A program made the position numbers and the translations under genes. 21,786 bases of DNA. Origin: a bacterium (GTDB lineage: Bacteria; Sysuimicrobiota; Sysuimicrobiia; Sysuimicrobiales; Kaftiobacteriaceae). The notes below the pieces were generated by a model. That model saw nothing but the letters and a program-made list of their open reading frames with translations, was not told the DNA's origin and made no database searches. Shown one piece after another: positions 2,080 through 19,828 of this stretch. The DNA is taken from positions 1 to 21,786 of the forward strand of contig JBIOWP010000110.1 of assembly GCA_044868695.1 (NCBI GenBank). The letters are read 5' to 3'. Each line of letters opens with the position of its first letter. Positions within the stretch are counted from its first letter, which is position 1.

Positions 2080-2741
2080 TGGGCTCACACCGCTGGGCCG
2101 ACTTCCTGACGGCGCTCGGCGTCATCGGCGCGACGGTCGCTCTGCACGAAGCCGCGCACGCGGTCGCGGCGGTCCGCGCCGGCGGGACGGTGAAGGAAGT
2201 CGGGGTCGGCTTCGGTCCTGCCCTGCTTCGCCTGAGAGTAGGCCGCCTGCCTGTGGCGGTACGCGCGCTGCCGATGGGGGGCTACGCCGCTGTCGATGCC
2301 GGGCACATCGCTCCACTCCGGCGAATCCCGATGCTGCTGGCCGGTCCGCTGACCAACATCATCGCGGGCGCAGCCCTGCTGCTGGCGTTTCGCAGGCATC
2401 CGGTCTCGCTCCCGACCAACGGCCGGCAGGTCGGCGTGACCGGGGTCGTGGGCGCGCTGTCGGCGCTCGCGCACGCGGCGAGGCTGGGCCCCGGCGCCGT
2501 GGCGCGCCTGGCCGGATCGATCAACCTGGGGCTCGGCGTTATGAACCTGCTCCCGGTGTTCCCGCTCGACGGCGGGCACGTCGCGCTGAACTTGATGGAG
2601 GCGCGCGGCATTTCGCCCAAGACCCGCACCGTGTTCAGCCGCATCACCGCTGCGGTGTTCCTGACGATCGCCCACGCGGCGCTGGTCGGCGATCTGCGCC
2701 GCCTGGCAGGGACCAGGGATCGGGGACCAGGGACCAGATGA
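2079..2741 (+). CDS. Site-2 protease / M50 family intramembrane zinc metalloprotease (RseP-like, no PDZ domain)
   Basis: HEAAH zinc motif, GFGP and PMGGY loop motifs, LAGPLTN and NLLPVFPLDGG. TGATG overlap with the gyrA stop. Confidence 0.88.
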   Translation: MGSHRWADFLTALGVIGATVALHEAAHAVAAVRAGGTVKEVGVGFGPALLRLRVGRLPVAVRALPMGGYAAVDAGHIAPLRRIPMLLAGPLTNIIAGAALLLAFRRHPVSLPTNGRQVGVTGVVGALSALAHAARLGPGAVARLAGSINLGLGVMNLLPVFPLDGGHVALNLMEARGISPKTRTVFSRITAAVFLTIAHAALVGDLRRLAGTRDRGPGTR

Positions 2742-2764
2742 TTGTCCCAGTCCCGTAGTTTCGT
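2709..2764. repeat. GGGACCA-type heptamer tandem/inverted repeat element (right arm truncated)
   Basis: GGGACCA GGGATCG GGGACCA GGGACCA (2709-2736), then TTGTCCC AGTCCC (2742-2754), then GTAGTTTCGT. The 15-mer 2750-2764 is identical to 15678-15692. Confidence 0.85.
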
Positions 2765-2766
2765 TG

Positions 2767-3630
2767 ATGTCCGTCGTCATCCGCCTCGCGTCTTCTGACA
2801 CCACACCACTGCCCCGCATTGTAGGCGGCCGGGCCGCCGCGCCCGAGGAGTGGGACCAATGGAGCGAGGAGCCCGGCCATGAACTGGTCGCCCAGGACGG
2901 GACGCGCGTCGTCGGAAGCATCCACGTCAGCCTCGTTGGGCGCAGCGAGGCCTGGATGGAGAACCTCCGCGTGCAGCCCGATGCCCGGGGGCGAGGCGTC
3001 GCTGCGCAGCTGGTCCGGGAGGCCGAGACCGTCGCCCGCCGCTACGGAGCGGCGGTGGTGCGCACCGCGGTGCCCGCCCACGAGTACGCCGCGCTGGGTG
3101 TAGCCGAGCGCGCCGGCTACCACGTGCTGCTGCGCGCGGCGGTCGTCGAGACGGCCCCGGCCGCAGTGCCGGCGCACATCCCGTATGACGCGCCCGTGCA
3201 CGTGCCGCCGGTGGAGCAGACGCCAGTTCTCCTCACATTTGTCGAATCCGGGCAGACGTCGCAGGCGTGGCGCCGGCTGGTCCCGCTCGGGTGGCGGTTC
3301 CGCCGCGTGACGGCCGACCTGGTGCGTGGGCTGACCAAAGATCGACGGGTCGTGGCCGCGCTGCACCCGGGATCGAAAGCGGTGCAGGCAGCTGCGCTGT
3401 TTGCGCTGCGGGCCGACGCCCTCGTGGTCTCGCTGCTCGACGGAACTCCCCCCGGAGTCCAGGCCGTCTTCGGCACGGTCGCCGAGGACGCGCGCGCACA
3501 CGGCGCCTCGCGCGCAGTGATCTTCACTCCCGATCCGCAGGTCCTCAAGCCGCTGGATGTCCGCGGGTGGACGCCCCACCCGTGGTGCCCCGAGGGGTTT
3601 CTGGTCGTCGAGAAGAGCATCGCCTCGTAG
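2767..3630 (+). CDS. GNAT family N-acetyltransferase
   Basis: Acetyl-CoA-binding motif A (WMENLRVQPDARGRGVAAQLV) and AALGVAERAGY, followed by a second degenerate domain. Start ATG 2767, alternatively TTG 2764. Confidence 0.8.
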   Translation: MSVVIRLASSDTTPLPRIVGGRAAAPEEWDQWSEEPGHELVAQDGTRVVGSIHVSLVGRSEAWMENLRVQPDARGRGVAAQLVREAETVARRYGAAVVRTAVPAHEYAALGVAERAGYHVLLRAAVVETAPAAVPAHIPYDAPVHVPPVEQTPVLLTFVESGQTSQAWRRLVPLGWRFRRVTADLVRGLTKDRRVVAALHPGSKAVQAAALFALRADALVVSLLDGTPPGVQAVFGTVAEDARAHGASRAVIFTPDPQVLKPLDVRGWTPHPWCPEGFLVVEKSIAS

Positions 3631-3727
3631 CCGACAGGAAGCCTCCGCTCCCGCGCCGAAACGCACCCCACAACCCTGCCTGTCGGTCCCACAGCCAGTG
3701 CCGGTGGACTTCGGGGGTGGTGCGAGC

Positions 3728-5074
3728 ATGAGCAACGGTCCATCTCGGGCCCCAGTTACGCAGATCGTGATCGCCGTCATTGTGGCGGCCGCGGTGGCTG
3801 GCGGCGCCGGCTACTGGGCCGGCGCACAGCGCCGCGCCCCGCAGGCGGTCGAAGCGCGCAAGGTGGAAATCTTCCACTGGTGGACGGCCGGCGGGGAGCG
3901 CGAAGCCGCCGACGCGATGTTCAAAGCCCTCAAAGGCGCCTATCCCGATGTCGAGCTCGTCGAGAATCCGGTTGCCGGCGGCGGCGGCGTGAGCCACCGT
4001 GTCGTCCTGCAGGCGCGGCTCTCCGCCGGGATCCCGCCGGACACCTGGCAAACACTGGGCGGCGCCGAGCTGAAGTCGTACGTGGACGGCGGCTATCTGG
4101 TGCCGCTGGACGACGTGTACGCGCAGCTGAAATACGCAGATGCGATTCCGAAGCCGCTGGCCAATGCCGTGACCATCGCCGGCCACCCATACGTCGTTCC
4201 GCTAAACATGCACATTCAAAACATCCTGTACTACAACAAGAAGCTGTTTGACGAGCTCGGCCTGCAGCCCCCGACCACGGCGGACGAGCTGCTGGCGGTC
4301 GCCCGGAGGATCAAGGCCGCGCGACCGCGCATGTCGCCGTTGGCGTTGGGCACCAAGGAAAAGTGGGAAGCGGCCTTCGTGCTGGACAGCATCCTCCTGG
4401 AGGCCGGCGGACCTGAGTATTACGTAAGATTGTATAAGGGTGAGGTCGATGTCGCCACCGACCCCACTTTCAAGGCGGCGCTGGACAAACTCAACGCGCT
4501 GCGCCCGTACATCTATCCGTTCCATGCGGGACTGACGTGGGATGAGTCCTGCGGTCTGGTCGTGTCCGGGGACTCGGCGATGGTGATCATGGGGACGTGG
4601 GCGATCGGTTACTTCAAGAGCCGTGGGTGGAACCCCGGCACCGACTTCGGCGCGGTCACCTTCCCGCAGAAGCCCGACCGCATCCTGCTCTTCCACCCGG
4701 ACACCTACGGTCTGGCCAAGGGAGCGCCGCACCCCAAGACAACGATGGACTGGTTGAAGGTGGTGGCGTCGCCCGAGCTGCAGGTGCCCACCGACGTCAC
4801 GCAGGGCGGACTGTTCGCGCGCATTGACATCGACCCGGGACAGTTCCCGGACCCCATCCGCCAGGAGCTGCAGAATTACGTCCGCAACAATCCGGGGAAA
4901 CTGATCCTGGACCAGCACGGGAGCATCGCGCCGTTCAGCTTCACGCAGGCCTACTGGGACGTTGCCGCGGCGTTCACCGCCAAACCCGACGTCGCCGGCA
5001 CCGTAAAGACGGTCGCCGAACTCTTCACGAAGTACAACGTCGGGGAAGGGGCGGCGTGGTATCAATGGCCTTGA
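3728..5074 (+). CDS. Carbohydrate ABC transporter substrate-binding protein (family 1, glucose-binding-like)
   Basis: Hydrophobic N-terminal segment, then EIFHWWTAGGE, ENPVAGGGG, PPDTWQ, NILYYNKKLF and AMVIMGTW. ATG 3728 follows a G-rich SD-like GGGGTGG; the longer 3557 start overlaps the GNAT gene. Confidence 0.9.
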   Translation: MSNGPSRAPVTQIVIAVIVAAAVAGGAGYWAGAQRRAPQAVEARKVEIFHWWTAGGEREAADAMFKALKGAYPDVELVENPVAGGGGVSHRVVLQARLSAGIPPDTWQTLGGAELKSYVDGGYLVPLDDVYAQLKYADAIPKPLANAVTIAGHPYVVPLNMHIQNILYYNKKLFDELGLQPPTTADELLAVARRIKAARPRMSPLALGTKEKWEAAFVLDSILLEAGGPEYYVRLYKGEVDVATDPTFKAALDKLNALRPYIYPFHAGLTWDESCGLVVSGDSAMVIMGTWAIGYFKSRGWNPGTDFGAVTFPQKPDRILLFHPDTYGLAKGAPHPKTTMDWLKVVASPELQVPTDVTQGGLFARIDIDPGQFPDPIRQELQNYVRNNPGKLILDQHGSIAPFSFTQAYWDVAAAFTAKPDVAGTVKTVAELFTKYNVGEGAAWYQWP

Positions 5075-5104
5075 ATGTGACGGCGGAGCCACCCGGCTGC
5101 TAGT

Positions 5105-5145
5105 CCAGGGGTCCCTCACGGTGTGCTCCATCGTGAGGGACCTGG
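5105..5145 (+). terminator. Strong intergenic hairpin between binding-protein and permease genes (mRNA stabiliser or partial terminator)
   Basis: GGTCCCTCACGGTG (5110-5123) pairs with CATCGTGAGGGACC (5129-5142) with one G-U, extended by flanking CCA/TGG across a 2-nt bulge. Only a weak U-tract (TTCATT) follows. Confidence 0.6.
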
Positions 5146-5169
5146 TTCATTGTCCTCCCCCCTGATGTC

Positions 5170-6066
5170 GTGAACGCCTCCAGTCTGCTCCTGCGCCGCG
5201 CGCGAGAGGCGGCCGTGTTCGCGCTGCCGCTGCTGTTCTTTCTGCTGATCCTATACGGAATGTTGTTCTGGACGTTCTACACCTCGGTGTCGGACTGGCA
5301 GGGGACCGCGCCCGACTACTCGTTCGCCGGGCTGAAGTGGTACCGGTTCATGATCGGGCTGGACCGCTTCTGGGTCGATCTGGGTAACAACGTGCGGTGG
5401 CTGGTGCTGGGCGTCGTCCCCACGGTGGTGCTGGCCGTCTTCCTCGCCTACCTGCTCGAGATCGGCTCGATCAAGGGGCTCGAGGCCTACCTGCGAACGC
5501 TCGTGCTCTACCCGGCCGCGATGTCCTTCGTGGTGACCGGCACGATCTGGTCGTGGATGTACCAGCCCGACCGTGGCGTTTTGAACACGCTGCTTCGCGC
5601 GGCGGGCCTGGACGCCCTGACGAGCGGCTACACCACCAATCCGTCCACCGCGACGTACTGGCTTATCCTGGTGTTCGTGTGGCAGTACCTCGGGCTCGCG
5701 GTGCTCATCGTGCAGGCGTCGTTCCGGAGCGTCGAGCTTGCGGAGATGGTCGAGTCATCGATGCTCGACGGCGCGTCCCGGCTGCGGATTCTCTTCAACG
5801 TCCTCATCCCGAACATCCGGGGCGGCATCCTGGTCGTGGTGTCGCTGCTGCTCATCTCGGCGCTGAAGGTGTTTGACATCGTGTACGTGGTGACGTTCGG
5901 GGGTCCGGGATACGCGACCGACGTCCTCGCCTTGTTCCAGTTCATTGCCACGTTTCAACAGCACCTGGTCGCACTGGGCGCGGGGCTCGCGGTGGTGATC
6001 TTCGCCCTGGCGTTCATCATCATCGTCCCCTACACCATCTACGCGCTGCAGCGGTGGTTTGAATGA
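5170..6066 (+). CDS. Carbohydrate ABC transporter permease (MalF/UgpA-like)
   Basis: Multiple TM segments, PDRGVLNTLL, EAA-like loop (EMVESSMLDGASRLRILFNVLIP) and LKVFDIVYVVTFGGPG. Confidence 0.9.
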   Translation: MNASSLLLRRAREAAVFALPLLFFLLILYGMLFWTFYTSVSDWQGTAPDYSFAGLKWYRFMIGLDRFWVDLGNNVRWLVLGVVPTVVLAVFLAYLLEIGSIKGLEAYLRTLVLYPAAMSFVVTGTIWSWMYQPDRGVLNTLLRAAGLDALTSGYTTNPSTATYWLILVFVWQYLGLAVLIVQASFRSVELAEMVESSMLDGASRLRILFNVLIPNIRGGILVVVSLLLISALKVFDIVYVVTFGGPGYATDVLALFQFIATFQQHLVALGAGLAVVIFALAFIIIVPYTIYALQRWFE

Positions 6067-6884
6067 GACCCTCCCGGGCGCTGCGGCTGCTGGTGGCGGC
6101 GACGGTGGTCGTGGTCTCCGCCGTCTACATCCTGCCGGTGTATGTCATGGGGGTGACGTCGCTCAAGACGCCCCTGGAGATCACCCAGCGGCAGTACCTG
6201 GTGCCGGGCGGGCGCCTTCAGGTAGGCAACTACGCGACCGCGCTGCGCCTCGTGGTCCCCGCGCTTGTCAACTCGACCATCATCTCCGTGACCGTCACCG
6301 CGCTGTCGGTCTTCGTGGGCGGGCTCGGAGGTTACTTCCTGGCCCGCTTCCGCTGGCCCATCACGAAGGTGATCTTCGTCCTGCTGGCGGTGGCGCTGTA
6401 CCTGCCCTACCAGGCCGTGCTGATTCCGCTCGTGCAGATTATCGCGAAGACGCACCTGGCGCTCAGCCACGCCGGGCTGATCCTCAGTTACCTGATCCTC
6501 AACGTCCCGCTGGCCGCGGTCCTCATGGCCACGTTCTTCTTCTCCGTCCCCCGGGAGCTGGAGGAGTCGGCCCAGGTGGACGGCGCGTCGCGGCTGCAGA
6601 TTTTCTTCCGGATTGTCTCCGTGGTGGCGCTCCCCGGCTACGCGTCGACCGCCATCCTGGTGTTCATCCAGGTGTGGAATGAATTCTTGCTGGCCTTGAC
6701 GCTGTCCACGCCGTACACCACCACGGTGCAAGTGAAGCTGGTGGAGATCAAAGGCAGCTATGTGGCGTTGTACAATTTGCAGATGGCGGCCGCGCTGATG
6801 ACGGTGCTGGTGCCGCTGCTGTTTTTCCTGCTGCTCGGCAAGTACTTCATCCGGGGCATTCTGGCGGGCGCCCTCCGAGGCTGA
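6063..6884 (+). CDS. Carbohydrate ABC transporter permease (MalG/UgpE-like)
   Basis: TSLKT, EAA loop (VPRELEESAQVDGASRLQIFFRIV), WNEFLLAL and KYFIRGILAGALRG. ATGA overlap with the previous gene. Confidence 0.92.
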   Translation: MRPSRALRLLVAATVVVVSAVYILPVYVMGVTSLKTPLEITQRQYLVPGGRLQVGNYATALRLVVPALVNSTIISVTVTALSVFVGGLGGYFLARFRWPITKVIFVLLAVALYLPYQAVLIPLVQIIAKTHLALSHAGLILSYLILNVPLAAVLMATFFFSVPRELEESAQVDGASRLQIFFRIVSVVALPGYASTAILVFIQVWNEFLLALTLSTPYTTTVQVKLVEIKGSYVALYNLQMAAALMTVLVPLLFFLLLGKYFIRGILAGALRG

Positions 6885-6890
6885 TGCACC

Positions 6891-7598
6891 ATGGCGGAGC
6901 TGCTGTACCTGCATGACAGCTATATGCGGGAGTTTGACGCCACCGTGACCGCGGTCGACGGGCAGGCGATCGCGGTGGATCGCAGCGCGTTCTTTCCGGG
7001 CGGCGGCGGACAGCCTGCGGACACGGGGGACGTACTGTGGACCGGCGGTCGCGCGCGTGCGGTGGAGATCCGCCGCCAGGGAGACGAGATCTGGCACGTA
7101 CTGGATACTGCCGCGCCGGCGGTGGACACGGCGGTGCGCGGCGAGCTCAACTGGGATCGGCGCTACGCGATCATGCGCCACCATTCCGCCCTGCACGTGC
7201 TCGTCGGTGTAGTGTACAAGCAGTTCAACGCGCTGGTCACCGGCGGCGCCATCTATCCCGACCGCGCGCGGATGGATTTCTCCCTGGAAGATCTCAACAA
7301 GGAGCGCATCGGCGTGATTGAAGCGGAGGCGAACCGGGTCATTGGCGAGCGCCGGCGGATTCTGGTGCGGTTCGTGTCGCGCGAGGAGTTCGAGCGGTCG
7401 GACCTGTCACGCCTGGCGAGGCACTTGCTGCCGCCGGAGATTCGGGAAGTGCGCGTGATCGAGATCGAAGGGTTCGACGCGCAGGCCGACGGCGGCACGC
7501 ACGTGGCGACCACCGAAGAGATCGGCCGCCTGACCGTTACCAAGACCGAGAACAAAGGGAAGATCAACCGCAGACTGGAAATCGCGCTGTCCAAGTGA
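6891..7598 (+). CDS. alaX: Alanyl-tRNA editing protein AlaX (AlaX-M type)
   Basis: LYLHDSYMREFDA, FFPGGGGQPADTG, MRHHSALH (HxxxH), ARMDF and ADGGTHV; 235 aa. Confidence 0.88.
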   Translation: MAELLYLHDSYMREFDATVTAVDGQAIAVDRSAFFPGGGGQPADTGDVLWTGGRARAVEIRRQGDEIWHVLDTAAPAVDTAVRGELNWDRRYAIMRHHSALHVLVGVVYKQFNALVTGGAIYPDRARMDFSLEDLNKERIGVIEAEANRVIGERRRILVRFVSREEFERSDLSRLARHLLPPEIREVRVIEIEGFDAQADGGTHVATTEEIGRLTVTKTENKGKINRRLEIALSK

Positions 7599-7680
7599 AG
7601 CGCACCGGGCCCAGAGCGGCAGGACTCCATCCCGTCGTCCGCCAACCCTAGTCAGTGCATTCCCGGAGGTCTAAGTCCTC

Positions 7681-8076
7681 ATGCAATGGCATGCGGCGGG
7701 CGATCTGTTCAACCGGTTGCGCCGAATCGTGCGCGCCCTCAACCTCGGCTACATCGACGTGCGCCGCATCACCTGCGTGCGGGTCGTAGGCTCGCGCGCC
7801 AACGCCCTGGCGCGGATCTGGGGACTGCCGCCGGTGTTCCAGGACGCGCTGAGGCTGCGGCCGCATTACGTCATCGAGTTCATGGTGCCGGCGTTTGACC
7901 GGCTGAGCCGGCAGGAACAGGATCGCGTGATCATCCACGAGCTCCTGCACATCCCCAGGACATTTAGCGGCGGCATCCGCCCGGAACGCTCGCTGTCCCT
8001 CAGCATCACTCCCCGCGCGGTGGAGCGGTATTACCGGCAGTACCTCGCAGCGATGCGCAGCCGCCGTACGCGGTGA
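7681..8076 (+). CDS. Putative small zinc metallopeptidase (HExxH; COG4900-like)
   Basis: ARIWGLP...YVIEF...FDRLS...IIHELLHIP pattern; SD GGAGGT about 10 nt upstream. Family assignment is from memory. Confidence 0.7.
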   Translation: MQWHAAGDLFNRLRRIVRALNLGYIDVRRITCVRVVGSRANALARIWGLPPVFQDALRLRPHYVIEFMVPAFDRLSRQEQDRVIIHELLHIPRTFSGGIRPERSLSLSITPRAVERYYRQYLAAMRSRRTR

Positions 8077-8678: not shown

Positions 8679-8684
8679 CGGGGT

Positions 8685-8700: not shown

Positions 8701-9597
8701 ATGACCGCTATCGACGGCAGGACCACCCTGGTCGGCATCATCGGCGATCCTGTGGCCCACTCGCTGTCGCCGCGGATGCACAACGCCGCGTTCGAGGCGC
8801 TGCAGATGAGCTGGGTATACGCGGCGTTCCGGGTGAGCGCGGGCGCGCTGCCGCAGGCGCTGCGGGGGGTCGCAGCGCTGGGGCTGGCGGGAGTGAATGT
8901 GACGATTCCGCACAAAGAGGCGGCCGCCGGCCTCGTGGATGATCTCGATCCCGCTGCGCGCCAGATCGGAGCGGTGAACACGGTGCAGGTGACCGGCGGC
9001 CGGCTGCGCGGGTTCAACACCGACGGGGCCGGCGTGCTGGACGCGCTTGCCGCCGACGGGGGAGTGCGGCCGTCAGGACGGGCATGCGTGATCCTCGGCG
9101 CGGGCGGCGGCGGTCGCGCGGCGGCGGTGGCCCTGGCATCCGCGGGCGCTGCACGCGTCACTGTCCTTAACCGCACGGAGCCCAAGGCCGTTGAACTGGC
9201 GAAGACGGTCGGCCGTGCGGCGCCGGCCTGCCGCGTGAGCGCAGGCCCGTTGACGGTGGACGCCGTCGAGCACGCCCTCGAGGGTGCCGACGTGGTCGTC
9301 CATGCCACAGCGGCGACGATGTCGGCGGCGATGGGCGGGGGAGGCGGCCGTGCCGAGTGGCTGGCGGCTCTGTCGGCCAGGCTGCGGCCCGGCGTGGCCG
9401 TCCTGGACATGGTCTACACTCCCGTGTGGACCGAGCTCCTGGAGGGCGCGAAGGCGGCCGGCGCCCGGGCGGTGAGCGGGCTGTCGATGCTGCTGTTTCA
9501 AGGCGCCCGCAGCTTCGAGCTGTGGACGGGACGGCCGGCGCCGGTGGACGTCATGCGGCGGGCACTGGGGCTAGACGAACTACCGTTGAAACGTTGA
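8701..9597 (+). CDS. aroE: Shikimate dehydrogenase
   Basis: IGDPVAHSLSPRMHN, GVNVTIPHKE, IGAVNT, GFNTDG, LGAGGGGRA, DMVYTP and GLSMLLFQGARSFELWTG. Confidence 0.95.
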   Translation: MTAIDGRTTLVGIIGDPVAHSLSPRMHNAAFEALQMSWVYAAFRVSAGALPQALRGVAALGLAGVNVTIPHKEAAAGLVDDLDPAARQIGAVNTVQVTGGRLRGFNTDGAGVLDALAADGGVRPSGRACVILGAGGGGRAAAVALASAGAARVTVLNRTEPKAVELAKTVGRAAPACRVSAGPLTVDAVEHALEGADVVVHATAATMSAAMGGGGGRAEWLAALSARLRPGVAVLDMVYTPVWTELLEGAKAAGARAVSGLSMLLFQGARSFELWTGRPAPVDVMRRALGLDELPLKR

Positions 9598-9687
9598 AGA
9601 GCCGAACTGCTGTTGGAACGTTGGAGCGAAACATGCCGAGGCCACATCGAGGGCACAACGTCTCAACGTTCCAACATTTCAACGTTC
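9584..9687. repeat. Octamer (CGTTG(A/G)AA-type) tandem/inverted repeat element
   Basis: Left units CGTTGAAA CGTTGAAG (9584-9599) and TGTTGGAA CGTTGGAG (9611-9626). Right, inverted units CAACGTCT CAACGTTC CAACATTT CAACGTTC (9656-9687). Confidence 0.85.
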
Positions 9688-9706
9688 GAGCGGGGTGTGC
9701 GGCCGA

Positions 9707-10828: not shown

Positions 10829-10850
10829 ATAGACACCATCTACTTCCGAA

Positions 10851-12476
10851 ATGCGGAACGTAGTGCTGATTGGGTTTATGGGCACGGGCAAAAGCGAAGT
10901 CGGGCAACTGCTGGCCCGGCGGCTGGGCTGGACCTGCGTCGACACCGACCGCCGGGTGGAGGCCCGGGAACGGGCGACGGTGGCGCAGATCTTTGCCCGG
11001 CGGGGTGAGGAGTATTTCCGCGACGCCGAGGCCAGAGTGGTCGCGGAGGTCGCGGGCCGCACCGACACGGTCGTCGCGACCGGCGGGGGCGTCGTGCTGC
11101 GGCCGGAGAACATGACCCGCCTCCGGCGGCAGGGGTGGGTCGTGTCGCTGACCGCGCCCGTCGACGTGCTGGTCAAGCGGCTGGGTGATGCGAAGGCGAG
11201 GCCGCTGCTGCGCGGGGACCTGCGGGAGAATCTCGTCCGGATCCTCGACCAGCGCCGGTCCCTCTACCGCGACGCCGATCTCCTGGTCGACGTCTCCGAC
11301 GCCGCGCCGCAGGGAGTGGTCGAGGCCATCATGGCATTTCTCCGCTCGCGCGAACGCACCACGATTACCGTCAGGCTGGGCGACCGCGCGTATCCGATTC
11401 ACGTCGGCGACGGCATCCTTCCCCTGCTCCCCGCTGACCTGCGCGAGTTGGGCGCGGGCCGCGGCGTCGCCGTGCTGTCCCACCGCGCGCTGCTGCGCGA
11501 GCGGTCGTCGCGAATACGCGGCGGCGCCAGGCTCCTGGCCGCGTTGAAGGGAGACGGGTTCGACGTGGTGCCGCTGGAGGTGCCCGCCGGCGAGTCGAGC
11601 AAGAGCCTGCCGGCGGCATCCCGGTTGTACACGCGGCTGGCCCGCGCGCGCATCGACCGGTATGGGACGCTGATCGCGCTGGGCGGCGGGGTGATCGGCG
11701 ACCTCGGCGGATTTGTGGCGGCCACCTATATGCGGGGGATCCGGTTGGTGCAGGTGCCGACGACCCTGCTCGCCATGGTCGACAGCAGCATCGGCGGCAA
11801 GACCGCCGTCAACCATGCCCGGGCGAAAAATCTGATCGGTGCCTTCTACCAGCCTGCGCTCACGGTCGCCGACGTACGGATGCTGACGACCCTCCCGGAT
11901 CGGGAACTGCGCAGCGGGCTGGCGGAGGTAATCAAGACCGCGGTGATCGGCGATGCCTCGCTCTTCGAGTATCTGGAGCAGCAACTGCCCGCCGTGCTCC
12001 GCCGGGACACCGGCGTGCTGGTCGAGGTGATTTCGCGCTGCGCGGCCTTCAAGGCGCGGGTGGTGGAGGCCGATGAACGGGAGCAGTCGGAGCGCCGCAT
12101 TCTCAACTACGGCCATACCATCGGCCATGCGATCGAGGCAGCGGCCGGTTTCCGCCGGCTGACGCATGGGGAAGCGATCGCGATCGGCATGGCCCTGGAG
12201 GGACGTCTGGCGCAGCGGCTTGGGCTGGCGGAGGCGGCCATCGTCGAGCGCCAGAACGCGCTGCTGGCCCGTGCGGGTCTGCCGACGAAGCTCGGCGCGG
12301 TGAACCGGCGCGCGGTGTGGCGGGCGATGACGCTGGACAAGAAGATCCGCGACGGCGTGCTGCGGTGCCCCCTGCCGGTAGGCATCGGCGAGGTGGTGCG
12401 AGAACAGGAAGTCCCGGAACCCTTGCTGGCGGAGGTGCTGGTCGGTGTCCAAAGTTCTCGTCGTCTACGGGCCTAA
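10851..12476 (+). CDS. aroKB: Bifunctional shikimate kinase / 3-dehydroquinate synthase (AroK-AroB fusion)
   Basis: The N-terminal ~165 aa have LIGFMGTGKS (P-loop), GEEYFR, ATGGG and RPLL. The remainder has GESSKS, LGGGVIGDLGGFVAATYMRG, VPTTLLAMVDSSIGGKT, LNYGHTIGHAIE and HGEAIAIGM. No stop between domains. Confidence 0.95.
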   Translation: MRNVVLIGFMGTGKSEVGQLLARRLGWTCVDTDRRVEARERATVAQIFARRGEEYFRDAEARVVAEVAGRTDTVVATGGGVVLRPENMTRLRRQGWVVSLTAPVDVLVKRLGDAKARPLLRGDLRENLVRILDQRRSLYRDADLLVDVSDAAPQGVVEAIMAFLRSRERTTITVRLGDRAYPIHVGDGILPLLPADLRELGAGRGVAVLSHRALLRERSSRIRGGARLLAALKGDGFDVVPLEVPAGESSKSLPAASRLYTRLARARIDRYGTLIALGGGVIGDLGGFVAATYMRGIRLVQVPTTLLAMVDSSIGGKTAVNHARAKNLIGAFYQPALTVADVRMLTTLPDRELRSGLAEVIKTAVIGDASLFEYLEQQLPAVLRRDTGVLVEVISRCAAFKARVVEADEREQSERRILNYGHTIGHAIEAAAGFRRLTHGEAIAIGMALEGRLAQRLGLAEAAIVERQNALLARAGLPTKLGAVNRRAVWRAMTLDKKIRDGVLRCPLPVGIGEVVREQEVPEPLLAEVLVGVQSSRRLRA

Positions 12477-12906: not shown

Positions 12907-12909
12907 CGG

Positions 12910-13278
12910 GTGCACATCCGAGGCGTCCGGGGAGCCATCACCGTGGAGGACGACTCCGAACGGTCGATCCTGGAGGCGACCCGCGAACTGCTGCAGCAGA
13001 TGGCGCAGTCCAACAACGTCGAGACGGACGAGATTGCCGCGATCCTGTTCACTTCGACCCCGGACCTCACCGCCGCGTTTCCTGCCGAGGCCGCGCGGCA
13101 GTTGCAGTGGACGACCGTACCGCTGATGTCTGCCACCGAGGTCGCCGTCCCCGGGGCCCTGCCGATGTGCATCCGGGTGCTGATGCTGTGGAACACGCCC
13201 CGGGCGCAGGAAGAGATCGAGCACATTTACCTGCGGCGGGCATCCGCGCTGCGGCCCGATCTCCGGTCCCGCCGATGA
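12910..13278 (+). CDS. aroH: Chorismate mutase, AroH class
   Basis: IRGVRGAITV, FTSTPDLTAAFPAEAAR, VPLM...E..VPGAL..CIRVL and HIYL..A..LRPD. Confidence 0.94.
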   Translation: MHIRGVRGAITVEDDSERSILEATRELLQQMAQSNNVETDEIAAILFTSTPDLTAAFPAEAARQLQWTTVPLMSATEVAVPGALPMCIRVLMLWNTPRAQEEIEHIYLRRASALRPDLRSRR

Positions 13279-13282
13279 ATGT

Positions 13283-13363
13283 CGGATTGCGGATTGTCGA
13301 TTTCGGATTGCACCAGATCAAGATGGGAATCAATTCGCAATCGCCAATCCGCAATCCGCAATT
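13283..13363. repeat. CGGATTG-type heptamer tandem/inverted repeat element
   Basis: CGGATTG CGGATTG TCGATTT CGGATTG (13283-13310), a 20-nt spacer, then CAATTCG CAATCGC CAATCCG CAATCCG CAATT (13331-13363). Confidence 0.9.
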
Positions 13364-13372
13364 GTTATTCTG

Positions 13373-14653
13373 ATGGACCTGACCGTGGCGCCCGCCGGCC
13401 GGCTGGCCGGGCGGCTGCGCGTCGGCGGAGACAAATCTATCTCGCACCGGGCGGCGCTTGTTGGCGCGCTCGCGCAGGGCGACACCGTCGTCACCAACTT
13501 TCTCCGCGCCGGCGACTGCCTGTCCACGCTGGGCTGCCTACGCGCGCTCGGGGTTTCCATTGAAGAAGACGGGCCCCGGGTCCTCGTACACGGCGCCGGG
13601 CTGCGCTGGCGCGCGCCCGCGGGGCCGCTGGACGCCGGCAACTCAGGCACGACGATGCGGCTGCTGGCGGGGATCCTCTCGGGTCAATCTTTCACCGCGG
13701 AGCTGACCGGGGATGCATCGCTGCGCGCGCGCCCCATGGACCGGATCGTCGAGCCGCTGTCGCAGATGGGAGCCCGCATCGTGGCGCTTGGCGGGGGAGG
13801 CCGCCACCCGCCGCTGCGCATCACCGGAGGGCCGCTGCGCGGCATCTCCTACACGCTGCCGGTCCCCAGCGCACAGGTGAAGTCGGCGGTGCTGCTGGCC
13901 GGGCTGTTCGCGGACGGCGAGACCACCGTCATCGAGCCCGTCCCGTCTCGCGATCACACCGAGCGCATGTTGGAATGGTTCGGGGGACGCGTGACGCGCC
14001 GGGCCGGCGGGATCTCCGTCACCGCCGGGGAGCTGCGCGGCCGCGACGTGAGCGTGCCCGGCGACATCTCGTCGGGGGCGTTTCTGCTGGCGGCGGCTGC
14101 GGCGCAGCCGGGGTCGGATGTCGTCGTCGACGATGTCGGCCTCAACCCCACGCGGACCGGCGTGCTGGATGTGCTGCGCGCCATGGGAGCGGAGGTCCTG
14201 GTCCGAAACTCGACGGCGCGCGGGGGCGAACCGGTGGGGACCGTCCAGGTGCGCGGGCGGACGCTGCACGGGGTGGCCATCGCTGGCGAGACGATCCCCC
14301 GCGTGATCGACGAACTCCCCGTGCTGTGCATCGTTGCGGCGGCCGCGCGCGGGGAGACGACCATCGCCGATGCCGCGGAGCTCCGCGTCAAAGAGTCGGA
14401 TAGAATTGGGACGATGGCGGCGGGGCTCCGCGCCCTGGGAATCACGGTGCACGAGCACCCCGACGGCCTGACGATCAACGGGGGACGCCTCCGGGGCGGC
14501 CACGTGCGCAGCGAGGGGGATCACCGCGTGGCGATGGCGTTTGCGGTCGCGGGACTGCTGGCCGACGCGCCGGTGACCGTCGACGGGGCGGAGGCGATCG
14601 CGGTCTCCTTTCCAGAGTTTGTGGATGCCGTGCGGGCGGTGACCGCCCCATGA
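13373..14653 (+). CDS. aroA: 3-phosphoshikimate 1-carboxyvinyltransferase (EPSP synthase, class II-like)
   Basis: GDKSISHRA, DAGNSGTTMRLL, GDASLRARPM, SAQVKSAVLLAGL, RDHTERML, PGDISS, LNPTRTG, IDELP, ELRVKESDRI and DHRVAMA. Confidence 0.97.
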   Translation: MDLTVAPAGRLAGRLRVGGDKSISHRAALVGALAQGDTVVTNFLRAGDCLSTLGCLRALGVSIEEDGPRVLVHGAGLRWRAPAGPLDAGNSGTTMRLLAGILSGQSFTAELTGDASLRARPMDRIVEPLSQMGARIVALGGGGRHPPLRITGGPLRGISYTLPVPSAQVKSAVLLAGLFADGETTVIEPVPSRDHTERMLEWFGGRVTRRAGGISVTAGELRGRDVSVPGDISSGAFLLAAAAAQPGSDVVVDDVGLNPTRTGVLDVLRAMGAEVLVRNSTARGGEPVGTVQVRGRTLHGVAIAGETIPRVIDELPVLCIVAAAARGETTIADAAELRVKESDRIGTMAAGLRALGITVHEHPDGLTINGGRLRGGHVRSEGDHRVAMAFAVAGLLADAPVTVDGAEAIAVSFPEFVDAVRAVTAP

Positions 14654-15603
14654 CCGCGCTGTCCACGGTCGCAGACGTCGCCGTGCGGATCCGCGCCAAC
14701 ATCGAGCGCGTGCTCGTGGGCAAGAGCCAGGTGATCGACCTGGCCCTGGTCGCGTTGTTGTGCGAGGGGCACCTGCTGGTCGAAGATGTCCCCGGCATCG
14801 GGAAGACGATGCTGGCGAAGACCCTCGCCAAGTCGCTGGGCTGCGCGTTCCGCCGCCTGCAGTGCACCCCGGACCTGCTGCCGGCGGACGTCACCGGACT
14901 GCACTATTTCAATCAGAAGACACAGGAGTTCGAGTTCCGGCCGGGACCGGTGTTTACGAATGTCCTGCTGGCGGACGAGATCAACCGGGCCACGCCGCGC
15001 ACCCAGGCCGCGCTGCTCGAATGTATGGAAGAACGGCAGGTGACGCTGGAAACCGGGACGGTGCCGCTGGCGCGGCCGTTCATGGTGATCGCGACCCAAA
15101 ACCCTATCGAACTACAGGGGACGTTCCCGCTGCCGGAGGCCCAACTCGATCGGTTTCTCATGCAGCTGCCCGTGGGCTACCCCACGGCGAACGACGAAGT
15201 GGAAATCCTGCGGCGCTTTCGCTCAACCAATCCACTGGACGACCTGGAGGCGGTCACGTCAGCCGACGAACTGCTGGCGATGCAGCGCGCGGTGCGCGAC
15301 GTCCACGTCAGCCCCGCCGTGGAAGAGTACATCGTCAGCATCGTCCGGGCGACCCGGTCGCACCCGGAGATTGAGCTCGGCGCGAGTCCGCGCGGGAGCC
15401 TCGGCCTGCACCGCACCGCGCAGGCGCTGGCGGCGGTTCGCGGCCGAGCGTACGTGCTGCCCGATGACGTCAAGATGCTGGTTCCTTCCCTGCTCCCCCA
15501 CCGGCTCATCACGACCTCCCAGGCGCGCCTCCGCGAGCGCGGAGCCCGCGAGATTGCCTCGGAAATTCTGAAGAGCGTGCCGGCGCCGGTGGAAGCCGAA
15601 TGA
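14650..15603 (+). CDS. moxR: MoxR family AAA+ ATPase
   Basis: GHLLVEDVPGIGKT (Walker A), QCTPDLLPADVTG, LLADEINRATPRTQAALLE, ATQNPIE..GTFPLPEAQLDRF and GASPRG. ATGA overlap with the aroA stop. Confidence 0.93.
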   Translation: MTALSTVADVAVRIRANIERVLVGKSQVIDLALVALLCEGHLLVEDVPGIGKTMLAKTLAKSLGCAFRRLQCTPDLLPADVTGLHYFNQKTQEFEFRPGPVFTNVLLADEINRATPRTQAALLECMEERQVTLETGTVPLARPFMVIATQNPIELQGTFPLPEAQLDRFLMQLPVGYPTANDEVEILRRFRSTNPLDDLEAVTSADELLAMQRAVRDVHVSPAVEEYIVSIVRATRSHPEIELGASPRGSLGLHRTAQALAAVRGRAYVLPDDVKMLVPSLLPHRLITTSQARLRERGAREIASEILKSVPAPVEAE

Positions 15604-15604
15604 C

Positions 15605-15692
15605 GGGACCAGGGACCCGGGACCAGGGACCGGAAAATGCGCCGGCGTCCTTGCTGGTCCCCGGTCCCCGGTCCCCGGTCCCGTAGTTTCGT
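15605..15692. repeat. GGGACCA-type heptamer tandem/inverted repeat element (complete)
   Basis: GGGACCA GGGACCC GGGACCA GGGACCG (15605-15632), a 22-nt spacer, TGGTCCC CGGTCCC CGGTCCC CGGTCCC (15655-15682), then GTAGTTTCGT directly before the next ATG. Confidence 0.92.
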
Positions 15693-16922
15693 ATGTACAC
15701 GCAGGGCTGGCTCTTCCTCGCGTGGTTCCTCATCGCCGTCGGCGTGGTGACGCGCCATGCCTTTGCATTCCTCCTCGGGATGGTCGTCATGCTCAGCGCC
15801 GCGGCGTCCTACCTGTGGGACCGATACTGTCTGTCCAGGGTCGAGTACCGCCGCGCGTTCTCGCCGAGGCGGGCGTTCTACGGAGAGACGGTGACCTTCA
15901 CGATGGAGGTCACCAACCGCAAACCCCTCCCTCTGGCGTGGCTCGAAGTCGTCGATGAGCTGCCGCAGGAGCTGATGCCGCTGCGCGGCCGGGTGATTCC
16001 TGCGCTGCGCCAGCGCCGGCATCATCTCGTCAACCTGTTCAGCCTGCGCTGGTTCGAGCGGGTGCGGCGGCATACGGCGGTGCGGTGTGACGCCCGCGGC
16101 TACTTTGCCCTAGGTCCGGCGCGGCTGCGGTCCGGCGACATCTTCGGGTTCACCGTGCGGGGCCGCGACGTCGACCGGGTGGATCACCTGCTCGTGTATC
16201 CGAAAGTTGTGCCGCTGGCCGCGCTGGGGTTGCCCGCGCTGCATCCGATGGGCGACCTCCAGCGCCGCCATCCCCTGGATGATCCGACGCGGGTGATCGG
16301 TGTGCGCGAGTATGCGCCGGGGGATCCGCTGCGGGCCATTCACTGGAAGGCGACCGCGCGCACCCAGGGGCTGCGCTCCAAACAATACGAGACCTCCGCC
16401 AGCCACCGGGTGGCGATCTTCCTGAACCTGGACACGCTGGGACGGTATGCGGAGTATCGTGGATTTGTCCGGCCGCTGCTGGAGTTAAACATCATGACCG
16501 CCGCCTCGATTGCGAACTGGGCGGTCGAGGGCGGCCACCACGTGGGGCTCTACGCCAACGGCTACCTGCCGCAGGGGCTGCGCTGGGTGCGTGTCCTGCC
16601 CGCCGCTGGGGCCGGGCAGCTCGCCTCGATGCTGGAGGCACTCGCCAAGATCTTCCCGACCCCTGTCATGCCTGTTGGTGATCTGATGCAGCTCGAAGCC
16701 ACCGCGCTGCCGTGGGGGACGACCGCGATCGTGGTCACCGCGGTGACAGACGAACCCCTGGAGATCGGCCTGTCCCGCCTGCGGGAGGCCGGACACGGGA
16801 CCGTGGCCGTGCTTATCGGCGACGACCCCGCGACCCCCTCTACCGCGACCGCGACCTATCGAGTGAGCGAGGTGCGGGGATGGCAGGCGCTCGACAGCCT
16901 GACCGCGGAGGCGATCGGGTGA
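15693..16922 (+). CDS. DUF58 domain protein (MoxR-associated, N-terminal TM segments)
   Basis: NRKPLPLAWLEVVD, RGYFALGP....GDIFG, LLVYP and GVREYAPGDPLRAIHWKATAR; typical position directly after moxR. Confidence 0.88.
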   Translation: MYTQGWLFLAWFLIAVGVVTRHAFAFLLGMVVMLSAAASYLWDRYCLSRVEYRRAFSPRRAFYGETVTFTMEVTNRKPLPLAWLEVVDELPQELMPLRGRVIPALRQRRHHLVNLFSLRWFERVRRHTAVRCDARGYFALGPARLRSGDIFGFTVRGRDVDRVDHLLVYPKVVPLAALGLPALHPMGDLQRRHPLDDPTRVIGVREYAPGDPLRAIHWKATARTQGLRSKQYETSASHRVAIFLNLDTLGRYAEYRGFVRPLLELNIMTAASIANWAVEGGHHVGLYANGYLPQGLRWVRVLPAAGAGQLASMLEALAKIFPTPVMPVGDLMQLEATALPWGTTAIVVTAVTDEPLEIGLSRLREAGHGTVAVLIGDDPATPSTATATYRVSEVRGWQALDSLTAEAIG

Positions 16923-18331
16923 CGATCCTCCGCCGCGCCCTTCCCCTCACGCTGGTTGCGCTGGAGTTTTCCTGGGCCTACCCATGGGTGCTGCTGCTCA
17001 GCGGCACGTTCTATGGGTCGCCCACCATTCCGCTGCTTCCGGCGGGATCGGTCCTGGCCCTGCTGGCTGTCGGACATCTGACCGTGCGGGCTGCGCTGGC
17101 GCGGCCCTGGATGCTCTCCACGACCAGAACCGTGGTCGTCGCGGCGGGCTGCGCGGTGGGATTGACCGCGGTCAAGCTTGCGTACTACCCGCAGGCGCCG
17201 TGGGATGCGCGGTGGATCGGTGCGCTGCTGGTTGCCGCGCACGATGCCCTTCCTGCGATCACTCCGCCCGTCGTGGCCGCGCTGGCCGCCACCGTCTTGT
17301 GGTGGCGGGGAGTGGTGCTGGGGGAACGGGAGTTCGGCTACTTCGAAGTGGATCGCGCGTTCCGCCGCGGCATCGGGTGGAGCGTTGTGTTCGTGTTCCT
17401 GCTGGCACTGTACGGGGACACCCGAGGCTTCGCCCTGGCCGGTCCGGCGCCGGCGTACCTGCTGGCGTTCTTCTCGGTCGGCCTGAGCGCACTTGCCGTC
17501 ACCAGGCTGCTAGCGCTATGGGAAGAAGGGCAGGCCGACCCGGCTCAGGCGCTGGCCGCCAACCGGCACTGGCTGCTGATGCTGCTGGGGGTCGTGGGCG
17601 CGATCTTCTCCGCGGCCGCCATGGTCGCCGGCCTTGTGCACGTCGAGATGCGGCCGGTGCTGGGGAAACTGCTCCACCCGCTGGCCCCCGCGGCCGAGTT
17701 CATCTTCTATGTCTTGTTTGCCGTCGCCATGGTGGTCGCCCGTCTCCTGGTCTTCGTGTTTGCGCGGCTGCCGTTCCGGCGGATCGTCATGCCCGCGCCG
17801 GCGGCTGTGGCTCCGCCGTCGTTTCGGGATCTGCTGAAGGACCTCCCGCCTGAGGTGGTCAGCGGCGCACGCTGGGGGATGGTGGTCCTGGTGGTGGCCG
17901 TCCTGGTGATCCTCGTTGCCGTTTCGATCGTGCGGGCACGGCGGCGGGCGCGCAAGAAAGACGATGATGAACGGGAGTCGGTGTGGTCGGGTGAGGCGGT
18001 GGTCGGCGGGCTCGGATCCATCTGGAGGAGACTGTGGGCGCGGTCCCGGACGGGGCCGCGCGCCGACCTGCCTGCCGTGAGCGCCATCCGGGCGATCTAC
18101 CGGGAGATGCTGCTGGTCGGCGAGGCCCTGACCGCACCCCGCGCGCCGCACCAGACGCCCCACGAGTACCGGCCGGTCCTGACCGCGCGGCTCCCGGGCT
18201 GCGAGGTGGATATCGCGTCCCTGACGGAGGCGTATGCGCACGTGCGGTACGCGTCGGTCCTCCCCGACGCGGCTGCAATCGAGCGCGCGCAGGCCGCGCT
18301 GGACCGCATCAAGGCATCGGTGAGCCCTTGA
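16919..18331 (+). CDS. Multi-pass membrane protein with C-terminal DUF4129-like domain
   Basis: GTG 16919 (GTGA overlap, SD GGAGG 16907-16911); many hydrophobic segments; C-terminal IRAIY...PRAPHQTPHEY...LTEAYAHVRY pattern typical of DUF4129. Confidence 0.8.
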   Translation: MTILRRALPLTLVALEFSWAYPWVLLLSGTFYGSPTIPLLPAGSVLALLAVGHLTVRAALARPWMLSTTRTVVVAAGCAVGLTAVKLAYYPQAPWDARWIGALLVAAHDALPAITPPVVAALAATVLWWRGVVLGEREFGYFEVDRAFRRGIGWSVVFVFLLALYGDTRGFALAGPAPAYLLAFFSVGLSALAVTRLLALWEEGQADPAQALAANRHWLLMLLGVVGAIFSAAAMVAGLVHVEMRPVLGKLLHPLAPAAEFIFYVLFAVAMVVARLLVFVFARLPFRRIVMPAPAAVAPPSFRDLLKDLPPEVVSGARWGMVVLVVAVLVILVAVSIVRARRRARKKDDDERESVWSGEAVVGGLGSIWRRLWARSRTGPRADLPAVSAIRAIYREMLLVGEALTAPRAPHQTPHEYRPVLTARLPGCEVDIASLTEAYAHVRYASVLPDAAAIERAQAALDRIKASVSP

Positions 18332-18335
18332 CAGC

Positions 18336-18346
18336 TGTGTTATAAT
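18336..18346 (+). promoter_or_regulatory. Extended -10 promoter of the T-box leader
   Basis: TGTG-T-TATAAT at 18336-18346, about 20 nt upstream of T-box Stem I. Confidence 0.75.
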
Positions 18347-18367
18347 TCCCGTTACCACTTGCAAACA

Positions 18368-18645
18368 GGCCGATGACCGGGGGAAGTACCCGGCGGCGCG
18401 CTCAGGAGAGAGCCGCGGAACGGTGAGAACGCGGCAGCGCGACGGCGAGGGAATGGGCCCGGGAGGCGCGCACCGAAGGCGTGATGCGCAATACAAATCA
18501 CGCCAGTAGGTTGCGCCGGCATCTCCGCCGTGACCATCGGAGACAGGACCAGCGAGCGCCGGCCAGCGGGCCGGAAGCCGGGTGGCACCGCGGGAGTTGT
18601 GGATCACCTCTCGCCCCTTGGTAGGGGAGAGAGGTGTTTGTATTT
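18368..18645 (+). ncRNA. T-box riboswitch, transcriptional type, Trp specifier
   Basis: K-turn GA motif (GATGA 18372-18376 / GA 18463-18464); AGTA 18385-18388; AG box GAGAGAG 18406-18412; apical GGTGAGA 18422-18428; specifier loop GAA-TGG-G 18451-18457; Stem II with GAA/AGTA S-turn (about 18467-18517); T-box GGGTGGCACCGCG 18580-18592; GCGGGAG/CTCTCGC antiterminator helix. Confidence 0.93.
18605..18645 (+). terminator. Intrinsic terminator of the T-box leader
   Basis: CACCTCTCGCCCCT-TGGT-AGGGGAGAGAGGTG followed by TTTGTATTT; the left arm overlaps the antiterminator 3' strand. Confidence 0.9.
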
Positions 18646-18658
18646 CTGGAGGGCTGGG

Positions 18659-18715
18659 ATGCTCACGGAGAAGGAACCGTCGGGATGGCGATCTTACACG
18701 GGGGCGAGACGATGA
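18659..18715 (+). CDS. Candidate 18-aa leader peptide [18 protein letters not shown]
   Basis: SD GGAGG 18648-18652, 6 nt before ATG 18659; its TGA (18713-18715) overlaps the aroF ATG (18712). Translation is unproven. Confidence 0.4.
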
Positions 18716-19752
18716 TCATCGTCATGGAGCCGCGCGCGCCGCGCGAACAGATCGACGCGGTCGTCAAGAAGATCCAGGACGCCGGCCTGGGCACGCATCT
18801 CTCGGTGGGCGTCGAGCGCACCGTGATCGGCGTCGTCGGCGACAGCCACACCAAGGAGTCGCTGCGCCAGTCGCTGGAGGCGACCCCCGGCGTGGAGAAG
18901 GTCGTCCCGATCCTCCAGCCGTTCAAGCTCGTCAGCCGGGACTTCAAGCCGGACAACACGGTCGTCACGGTCAAGGGCGTGCGGTTCGGCGACGGCCCGG
19001 TCACCGTCGTCGCCGGTCCCTGTTCCGTGGAGAGTCTCGAGCAGATCGTGGGGACCGCGAAGGCGGTCAAGGCGGCGGGCGCGGTGATGCTCCGGGGAGG
19101 CGCGTTCAAGCCGCGCACGTCGCCGTACACGTTCCAGGGGCTGGAAGAGGAAGGGCTGCGCTATCTGGCGGAGGCGCGCAGCGCGACGGGCCTGCCGGTC
19201 GTTACCGAGGCGATGGACGCGTACCAGCTCCAGTTGGTGGTGAGGTACGCCGACATGGTGCAGATCGGCGCGCGCAACATGCAAAACTACACCTTGCTGC
19301 GGGAAGCCGGCCGGGCCAAACAACCTGTCCTGTTGAAGCGCGGACCTAGCGCGACCATCCAAGAGCTGTTGCTTGCGGCAGAGTACATCATGAACGAGGG
19401 CAACTACGACATCGTGCTCTGTGAGCGGGGCATCCGCGGCTTCGACAACTACACCCGGTACCTGCTCGATCTCAGCGCGGTGCCGGTGCTCAAGGAGTTG
19501 ACGCACCTGCCGGTGATCGTGGATCCCAGTCAGGGCACCGGCAAGCGCAAGTACGTGGCGCCGATGTCGCGGGCGGCCGTGGCCGCCGGCGCCGATGGAC
19601 TGATCGTGGAGGTCCATCCCGATCCCGAGAAGGCCCGCAGTGACGGCCCGCAGCAGCTTACCCCCGACCAATTCCGCGCGCTCATGAACGAGCTCGGGCC
19701 GCTTGCGAAGGCTCTCGGCCGCAAGGTCCAGGAGCCCGCGTTGTCGAGATAA
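18712..19752 (+). CDS. aroF: DAHP synthase, type I-beta with N-terminal ACT/ferredoxin-like regulatory domain
   Basis: MIIVM...[11 protein letters not shown]-terminal domain; [56 protein letters not shown] and [15 protein letters not shown]. An alternative in-frame ATG lies at 18685. Confidence 0.95.
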
Positions 19753-19828
19753 TTGCGAATTGCGGATTGCCGATTGCGGATTGAAACTGCGCAGTTCAAT
19801 TCGCAATTCACAATTCGCAATCCGAAAT
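19749..19828. repeat. CGGATTG-type heptamer tandem/inverted repeat element
   Basis: ATAATTG CGAATTG CGGATTG CCGATTG CGGATTG (19749-19783), palindromic spacer AACTGCGCAGTT (19785-19796), then CAATTCG CAATTCA CAATTCG CAATCCG AAAT (19797-19828). Confidence 0.92.

Follow-up and report, generated by a model that had tools for sequence, protein, structure and literature searches.

What are the hairpins that occupy five gene junctions in a 21,786-nt stretch of DNA from a Kaftiobacteriaceae bacterium (assembly GCA_044868695.1, contig JBIOWP010000110.1; this whole stretch is the window), each built from tandem 7- or 8-nt units, a spacer and inverted units? Our favoured answer, with a probability of roughly 0.55, is that they are the gene-less representatives of a family of cassettes, which when filled carry a PF05635 four-helix-bundle gene between such arms, and that the family is spread by natural transformation. 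Filled and empty forms agree in units, polarity, copy number and end motif, and sometimes in junction; it is highly probable that they belong to the same element family. Spread of the cassette by natural transformation falls a little short of even odds. The new points are a mismatch rule in the empties, the lack of a wobble bias on the sense strand, and a box at filled cassettes that is shared with competence genes.

All five elements were recovered, with the units claimed for them, where a sequence-only reading of the window had placed them, copy 1 being half decayed (Table 1). They stand at gene junctions as described, but not strictly between genes: the upstream frame covers all of copy 1's left arm, and also 14 nt at the start of copy 2. 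Contigs from public runs of two studies, one run being possibly the source of the window itself, span the copies with few differences; the copies are therefore not assembly artefacts. A joint bypassing copy 5 in three runs had different letters between and short sides, and was taken as another organism. As RNA, four copies folded better than dinucleotide shuffles (z = −2.3, −4.4, −6.2 and −2.5), whereas copy 1 did not (z = +0.35) because its right arm has decayed.

The assembly is approximately 95% complete, with 2418 genes in our own gene calling. The genome-wide scan proposed with the earlier reading returned 294 arrays with a 7- or 8-nt period, compared to 7 in the triplet-shuffled genome, and 56 with a 9-nt period, compared to 8 in shuffled DNA. 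Placement was non-random and concentrated at gene ends, with 252 of the 294 arrays at most 100 nt from a called gene end (random positions, 24.5%). The 226 elements were made up of 119 pairs plus 107 arms that appear single. Pairs were held by 86 of 1848 co-directional junctions (4.7%), 16 of 206 convergent junctions (7.8%) and 5 of 202 divergent junctions (2.5%), while 12 pairs were unassigned. The supposed special tie to operon interiors thus gives way to a different rule, since the rate per junction is highest at convergent junctions: arms are tied to stop codons. Distances from stop to first unit showed two peaks, at 4 nt and at 11 nt; among the stops ahead of arms, TAA was enriched (24/78 vs. 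410/2323).

Twenty unit families accommodated 304 of the 350 arrays, and 197 of these 304 had four-unit arms. Of 186 paired arms, 185 share one fixed polarity, with the unit reading inward from either end. The three units of the window had been regarded as unrelated; all three are connected by a single-edit network that takes in 70 of the 81 unit variants seen at least three times. The commonest unit, GGGACCN (74 arrays), was rare in 21 relatives. Sequence is not wholly unconserved either, because a degenerate end motif, AACTRC / CTRAC, stands outside the arms of several unit families, including copies 1, 2 and 4, and inside copy 5. It was detected on 19 of 58 filled flanks (2.8 in shuffles) and on 112 of 418 empty flanks (20 in shuffles); roughly one end in three or four carries it, and some families are without it. 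Nested and mismatched arms occur. Two candidate explanations were rejected: a master arm, as position-specific unit variants would imply, was weak in two of seven families and absent in five, and G-quadruplexes do not provide a general basis, as the CGTTGAAA, CGTGAAT, AATCTATTG and CACAACCTA families share the layout without GGG.

Arms flank three of the four PF05635 genes of the genome, which were the sole genes detected within matched arms; no GIY-YIG nuclease was present there. The cassette on contig C157 has arms of the CGGATTG unit family, as do copies 3 and 5. The suggestion that the hairpins are the empty form of a four-helix-bundle cassette is thereby borne out, with PF05635 genes between like arms both here and in relatives. 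The alternative cargo named with it, a GxxExxY protein, was missing: neither a PF13366 gene nor, as a further candidate, a DUF559 (PF04480) gene was found in the 95% complete assembly. A reverse transcriptase partner was also rejected, as the reverse transcriptase genes lie apart from the cassettes, on small contigs, and none adjoins the four PF05635 copies. Several of these genes, on the small contigs C32, C44, C47, C86 and C100 of G000, have open frames of 370–630 aa.

Seventeen of the 22 family genomes contained PF05635 matches, and 47 of 48 fetched loci were examined in relatives. The cassettes occupy about 20 distinct junctions with housekeeping neighbours, two of them adjoining pilus-assembly T2SSF genes; neighbours at the examined loci were protein genes or a tRNA gene, with no cassette in an rRNA gene. 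Automatic detection picked up 26 armed loci in relatives. The protein tree contains one well-supported clade with related 9-mer arms at four junctions and a second clade with GGGCWC-type arms at two, and one junction is occupied by three different lineages. Over 21 junctions, unit distance tracked protein distance (Mantel rho = 0.28, P = 0.008, with units assigned by hand), a correlation that signifies co-inheritance rather than binding. Five Xanthomonadales genomes carry PF05635 genes, and in four of these (L433–L436) the gene has GGGACCN arms and follows what we take to be carA, lying directly before carB in three. The closest solved structure is the five-chain 2GSC. No PF05635 match was obtained among 50,697 phage records, 25 of 72,556 plasmids, mostly cyanobacterial, had one, and the C157 protein had no relative in viral contigs. 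An armless, box-less paralogue (G000 C27:15513-15818, minus strand; orthologues L075-L077, L088, L107-L111) occupies a fixed locus across the family and is vertically inherited and apparently domesticated.

Orthologous junctions were compared using 65 fetched stretches from five relatives, with a lenient threshold and with kin that are not independent. Among 603 comparisons, arrays were present in both genomes in 57, here only in 47, there only in 139 and in neither in 360 (odds ratio 3.1). Both presence/absence and unit switching, which the earlier reading had proposed to look for, were observed, as the unit differed at 41 of the 57 shared junctions. The moxR/DUF58 junction holds four different units in four genomes, a minimal hairpin in one and nothing in six (G015 and five of genus g7). 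At the copy 1 junction, two relatives have a pair of the 8-mer GGGAACGC, one has a GTGACTC-type pair, and g7 has nothing. At the copy 2 junction, G005 and G015 share the unit and some of the spacer, G011 has a related unit, and g7 lacks the element. Relatives have 9-mer arms or nothing at the copy 3 junction, and at the copy 5 junction a related unit occurs in G015 and nothing in six other relatives. Four-fold sites are saturated between these genera (42–52% identity). In six selected pairs, same-unit orthologous arms agreed at 279 of 325 aligned bases; such identity barely exceeds that of unrelated arms of one family, and two arms were identical over 30–36 nt.

Fourteen junctions are filled in a relative but not here, and 5 of the 14 keep a pair, an arm or a remnant in this genome. 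Four relatives were tested at the junction between genes 14 and 15 of contig C29, and the empty spacer aligned to the filled leader of two of them, with scores of 41 and 32 where shuffles reached at most 24; therefore some empties, at least, arise through gene loss. At like junctions a different hairpin family, CCCTCTCCC...GGGAGAGGG, was observed in L012 (aroE/aroC, G002) and L045 (aroC/aroK, G004).

In GGGACCN arms, six positions are 96–99% invariant and the seventh varies (A 138, G 104, C 33, T 22). This variable base was complementary to its in-register partner at only 1 of 45 positions in 15 strict pairs, compared to 10.9 expected from shuffling, and none of 5000 shuffles was as low; in copy 4 the variable bases were unpaired at 3 of 3 positions. 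The same rule held in 23 looser GGGACCN pairs (pairing 0.07 vs. 0.29) and in the GGGCNYC family (0/36 vs. 0.28), and was weak in the GGGAKYN family. When GGGACCN pairs were oriented by transcription, 3 of 63 positions were complementary against about 18 by hand calculation. The rule was not significant in the families with two variable bases (GGRAACNN, ATTKNGR, GGAARAR and GTTGRANN) and ran the opposite way in 13 GTTGRANN pairs from relatives, filled cassettes among them. Off-register pairing deficits were smaller and not significant. A weaker rule was seen in 25 Xanthomonadales pairs (28/75 vs. 36.7, P = 0.009).

Filled cassettes behaved differently from empties. A perfect run one base short of two units was present in 11 of 29 filled cassettes vs. 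19 of 209 empties, a comparison that omits two false pairs and four long-spacer pairs without a demonstrated PF05635 gene. By hand count, four filled GGGACCN cassettes of Xanthomonadales matched the variable base at 9 of 12 positions. The empties of relatives contained 13 long helices vs. 19.3 expected (P = 0.03), and the rule was not significant when filled and empty pairs of relatives were pooled. Helix length among empties was not predicted by spacer length. Metagenome contigs (80 of 137 stretches) yielded seven distinct arm pairs, mostly long near-perfect arrays without a deficit, an uninformative sample. On the sense strand, G-U and A-C oppositions were equally frequent (92 vs. 93 in one count, 66 vs. 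68 in a second), with the CGGATTG family alone showing an excess of G-U (19 vs. 7). Since G-U equals A-C, the constraint points to DNA. We infer that it acts on DNA, most simply through loss of perfect short-loop hairpins after gene loss; alternatively, a protein requiring the loops may lie behind the mismatch rule.

These counts bear on the idea that the elements function as mRNA hairpins, retained by the host because they aid transcript processing, stability or translational coupling, and read by a nuclease or an RNA-binding four-helix-bundle protein, the filled form resembling excised 23S rRNA intervening sequences. Arms that begin a few bases from stop codons, stable RNA folding, retention at orthologous junctions despite saturated four-fold sites, regular one-base internal loops and the transcription of most of the related Xanthomonas repeats (PMC4692102) would all agree with it. 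However, G-U and A-C are balanced on the sense strand outside the CGGATTG family, 107 of the 226 elements were scored as single arms, units are swapped or elements missing in many relatives, and no Rfam family covers the hairpins at its gathering score. We consider this explanation improbable. The structure-recognised RNA element of the sequence-only reading likewise loses ground through the absence of a sense-strand wobble bias.

The leaders of filled cassettes have in common a 20-bp palindrome, AATRRCYCANNTGRGYYATT, located 70–110 nt ahead of the gene. A model of this box trained on 10 cassette sites found 32 sites in the genome, 29 of them outside called genes. The box precedes yraN-comM-dprA (we give the name comM to the Mg-chelatase-family gene that lies between yraN and dprA), comEC, radC, ssb and recA, and also a GspH-like pilin gene, a DEAD helicase gene, two Y1 transposase genes, a LAGLIDADG nuclease gene and the C157 cassette. 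At a threshold of at least 10 bits, it recurred at fixed distances in relatives before radC (6/21), yraN (6/18) and comEC (8/16), against a background of 28 in 2320 genes. Its presence at cassettes, at the same threshold, went with orientation: among armed cassettes, 20 of the 24 that are not co-directional with both neighbours had it and none of the 13 that are; it was also absent from all nine armless paralogues. The cargo of cassettes outside operons thus shares a candidate upstream operator with comEC, dprA, comM, radC, ssb and recA, a set that constitutes the classical competence regulon, and the box is a putative competence operator. Identity with the LexA box was rejected, as the 14-bit search showed no box ahead of either lexA gene.

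Among 81 genomes of the order, PF05635 was present in 18 of 53 with ComEC and in 2 of 28 without, both exceptions being less than 90% complete. ComEC, PF05635 and both counted units were all absent from genus g2 (G001, G007 and G013). ComEC had no match in the 3 genus g2 and 22 family f3 genomes searched, where natural competence has likely been lost.

Several additional elements were observed at box sites. A second repeat family, the GGTGCCWGGCACC palindrome, carries a competence-type box and flanks both Y1/RAYT-like transposase genes. At six intergenic sites, none with a cargo gene, the box is immediately adjoined by a third family, GAAGGAGGGGACTGTCCCCTCC. The box-preceded LAGLIDADG endonuclease gene is located at G000 C109:11513-12122, and its flanking DNA may be an rRNA intron.

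According to the favoured explanation, the cassette gene would be switched on at competence, via its own box or the host operon. The pentameric PF05635 protein would then bind its own repeat unit in the four-unit arms of incoming single strands. Folded arms would loop the gene out, and recombination between conserved flanks or resident arms would insert the cassette. Loss of the gene would leave empties, of which only imperfect hairpins would persist. These could be re-entered by other cassettes, changing the unit, as the nested or mismatched arms and copy 2 may illustrate, and could serve as docking sites or bias recombination in the manner of uptake sequences. This scheme would cover spread via resident arms or flanks, and not first entry at an armless junction.

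Several observations weigh against this explanation. Three armed genes are few to account for about 225 empties whose spacers are unrelated, no GGGACCN-armed filled cassette was found in the assembly, and genus g5 has filled cassettes yet 0–1 matches to the two units counted. The second candidate remnant, on C145, keeps only the box, its alignment being no better than shuffles. The box model had been trained on 10 of the 20 box-positive cassettes, and about a dozen box sites lie ahead of unrelated genes; because recA, ssb and the helicase gene are also box-preceded, a DNA-damage box is possible. The box was not found outside the host family (families f4, f5, f7 or Xanthomonadales), and the Xanthomonadales cassettes had no CRP-S-like site. 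The ComEC comparison represents few independent lineages, with the ComEC-negative genomes essentially two, and 35 ComEC-positive genomes are without PF05635. No catalytic activity is known for PF05635.

A transposase acting in trans, such as the resident Y1/RAYT-like enzymes, could instead have moved non-autonomous elements, with the box belonging to a DNA-damage regulon. The end motif shared by filled and empty forms, the 4- and 11-nt peaks in stop-to-arm distance, the two Y1_Tnp genes preceded by the same box and the nested or mismatched arms would fit such movement. Other observations count against it. Among 86 spacers none was more alike than shuffles (best score 13 vs. 18 in shuffles), and the empties are therefore not copies of the miniature inverted-repeat transposable element type. 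Direct repeats around single arms numbered 12 vs. 12 expected, with relatives too diverged for a clean empty-site comparison, and own outer flanks were no more complementary than shuffled partners. A different palindrome flanks the Y1 genes, and the box, which was not seen before the lexA genes, precedes comEC and dprA. This alternative is as improbable as the mRNA hairpins, and the classical self-copying non-autonomous element of the earlier reading is not supported, in view of the same unrelated spacers and lack of direct repeats around arms.

Local polymerase slippage with template switching, neutral and with an incidental gene association, is already largely refuted and very improbable: although unrelated spacers, near-independent variable bases per unit, a mutational continuum of units and common decayed or single arms would suit it, it leaves unexplained the fixed polarity and four-unit mode, one unit in 74 arrays that is rare in 21 relatives, variable bases that avoid pairing where template switching would perfect the pairs, the 26 armed PF05635 loci of relatives and units that follow the protein tree. 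The earlier judgement that these are not slippage microsatellites is supported.

The element belongs to no family tested, and the nearest in kind are repeat-flanked small-gene elements such as NTS-ssnA. REP/RAYT systems (REPINs) likewise have many inverted pairs just past stops and few gene-bearing copies. Unlike these, the cassettes contain no tyrosine transposase within their arms, the Y1 genes go with another palindrome, and the empties are not near-identical.

The GGGAATC repeats of Xanthomonas and GGGGA(C/T)T repeats of Nostoc are intergenic four-unit heptamer arrays of unresolved function (PMC4692102). They share with the present elements the heptamer unit, the four-unit preference, proximity to stops, rarity between divergent genes and the occurrence of inverted pairs (70–75 per genome); the arrays of this genome show the features of the Xanthomonas type, with about four units, intergenic, near stops and often as inverted pairs. 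The text available proposes G-quadruplexes, and in it no link to mobile elements is drawn and no four-helix-bundle gene named. Here, in contrast, many units have no G-run, many unit families coexist and filled forms occur. Beggiatoaceae TAACTGA repeats are also intergenic heptamers at operon junctions, of unexplained origin, and their unit resembles our end motif (PMC4679880); they form inverted pairs almost never, and the main text contains neither 'four helix' nor 'helix bundle'.

The NTS-ssnA-NTS (Ssn) elements resemble the cassettes in having a small gene between its own repeats, hundreds of solo repeats and many protein-repeat pairs (PMC11893778). Action on single-stranded DNA in natural transformation, inferred for the cassette, has been demonstrated for Ssn. 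However, Ssn elements carry a GIY-YIG nuclease gene and their repeats are hairpins of 20–50 nt, whereas the present cassettes carry PF05635 and have tandem-array arms, each pairing only with the opposite arm. DNA uptake sequences (PMC3630211) are comparable in their lineage variants around a core, intergenic inverted pairs, tie to transformation and co-variation with a binding protein. They are single 10–12-mers in thousands of copies, often within genes and read by a pilin, unlike the approximately 300 arrays, four-unit by preference, in some 20 unit families found here, with a cytoplasmic-type protein as suspected reader. The ORF-bearing 23S rRNA intervening sequences and Avd of diversity-generating retroelements (PMC10053308) share PF05635 or its fold (2GSC) and a gene within inverted arms; the present cassettes, unlike them, lie between protein genes, and no reverse transcriptase adjoins the four copies. 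Our search, largely of non-subscription papers and of main texts rather than supplements (where competence-regulon gene lists might name the family), found no publication that connects four-helix-bundle genes with repeat arms or with competence.

This genome connects two questions, what accounts for the excess of heptamers in bacterial genomes and what the widespread PF05635 protein does. A candidate operator shared by the cargo gene and DNA-uptake genes provides a specific, testable context, predicting the timing of expression, binding of the protein to its own unit as single-stranded DNA, and a transformation phenotype. Spread by natural transformation would give a testable account of the unexplained 7-base repeats of bacteria; it would represent selfish spread without a transposase and a small-protein family with many natural specificities for single-stranded repeats. 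In a broader proposal, which we regard as doubtful, pentamers of the four-helix-bundle protein would be induced at competence and read four-unit arrays on the single-stranded DNA being taken up, and each protein clade would drive its own repeat dialect through the genome via biased protection or integration of DNA. Such a transposase-free selfish element might be the common source of bacterial 7–9-base arrays and ORF-bearing rRNA intervening sequences.

Table 1. Coordinates of the five hairpins in the window (gene names assigned via Pfam) and of two further repeat families in genome G000
Feature	Position	Strand	Description
Copy 1	2709..2764	.	M50 peptidase / GNAT junction
Copy 1, left arm	2709-2736		GGGACCA x4; within M50 frame, whose stop is 2739-2741
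Copy 1, right arm	2742-2754		decayed
Copy 1, end motif	2755-2764		GTAGTTTCGT
Copy 2	9578..9687	.	aroE / aroC junction; appears nested
Copy 2, first end motif	9578-9583		AACTAC; followed by two CGTTGAAN units
Copy 2, second end motif	9605-9610		AACTGC; followed by two further units, then spacer
Copy 2, right arm	about 9656-9687
Copy 3	13283..13362	.	aroH / aroA junction; starts 4 nt past stop codon
Copy 3, arms	13283-13310 and 13331-13362		CGGATTG-type
Copy 4	15605..15692	.	moxR / DUF58 junction
Copy 4, left arm	15605-15632		GGGACCN x4; followed by spacer
Copy 4, right arm	15655-15682		inverted x4
Copy 4, end motif	15683-15692		GTAGTTTCGT
Copy 5	19754..19828	.	aroF / tyrA junction
Copy 5, arms	19754-19783 and 19797-19828		CGGATTG-type
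Copy 5, spacer	AACTGC at 19785, GCAGTT at 19791		13 nt; inverted end-motif pair
GGTGCCWGGCACC family	G000 C20:15700-16284, C2:12300-13090, C158:1-300, C161, C35, C120, C78
GAAGGAGGGGACTGTCCCCTCC family	G000 C83:15400, C107:34700 and 48360, C149:7440, C72:7860, C78:3750

Two further features of the window were recorded. A T-box leader lies ahead of aroF at 18364-18621 on the plus strand (Rfam RF00230, E = 5e-9, under the gathering score), and a shikimate kinase / 3-dehydroquinate synthase fusion gene occupies 10851-12476 on the plus strand.

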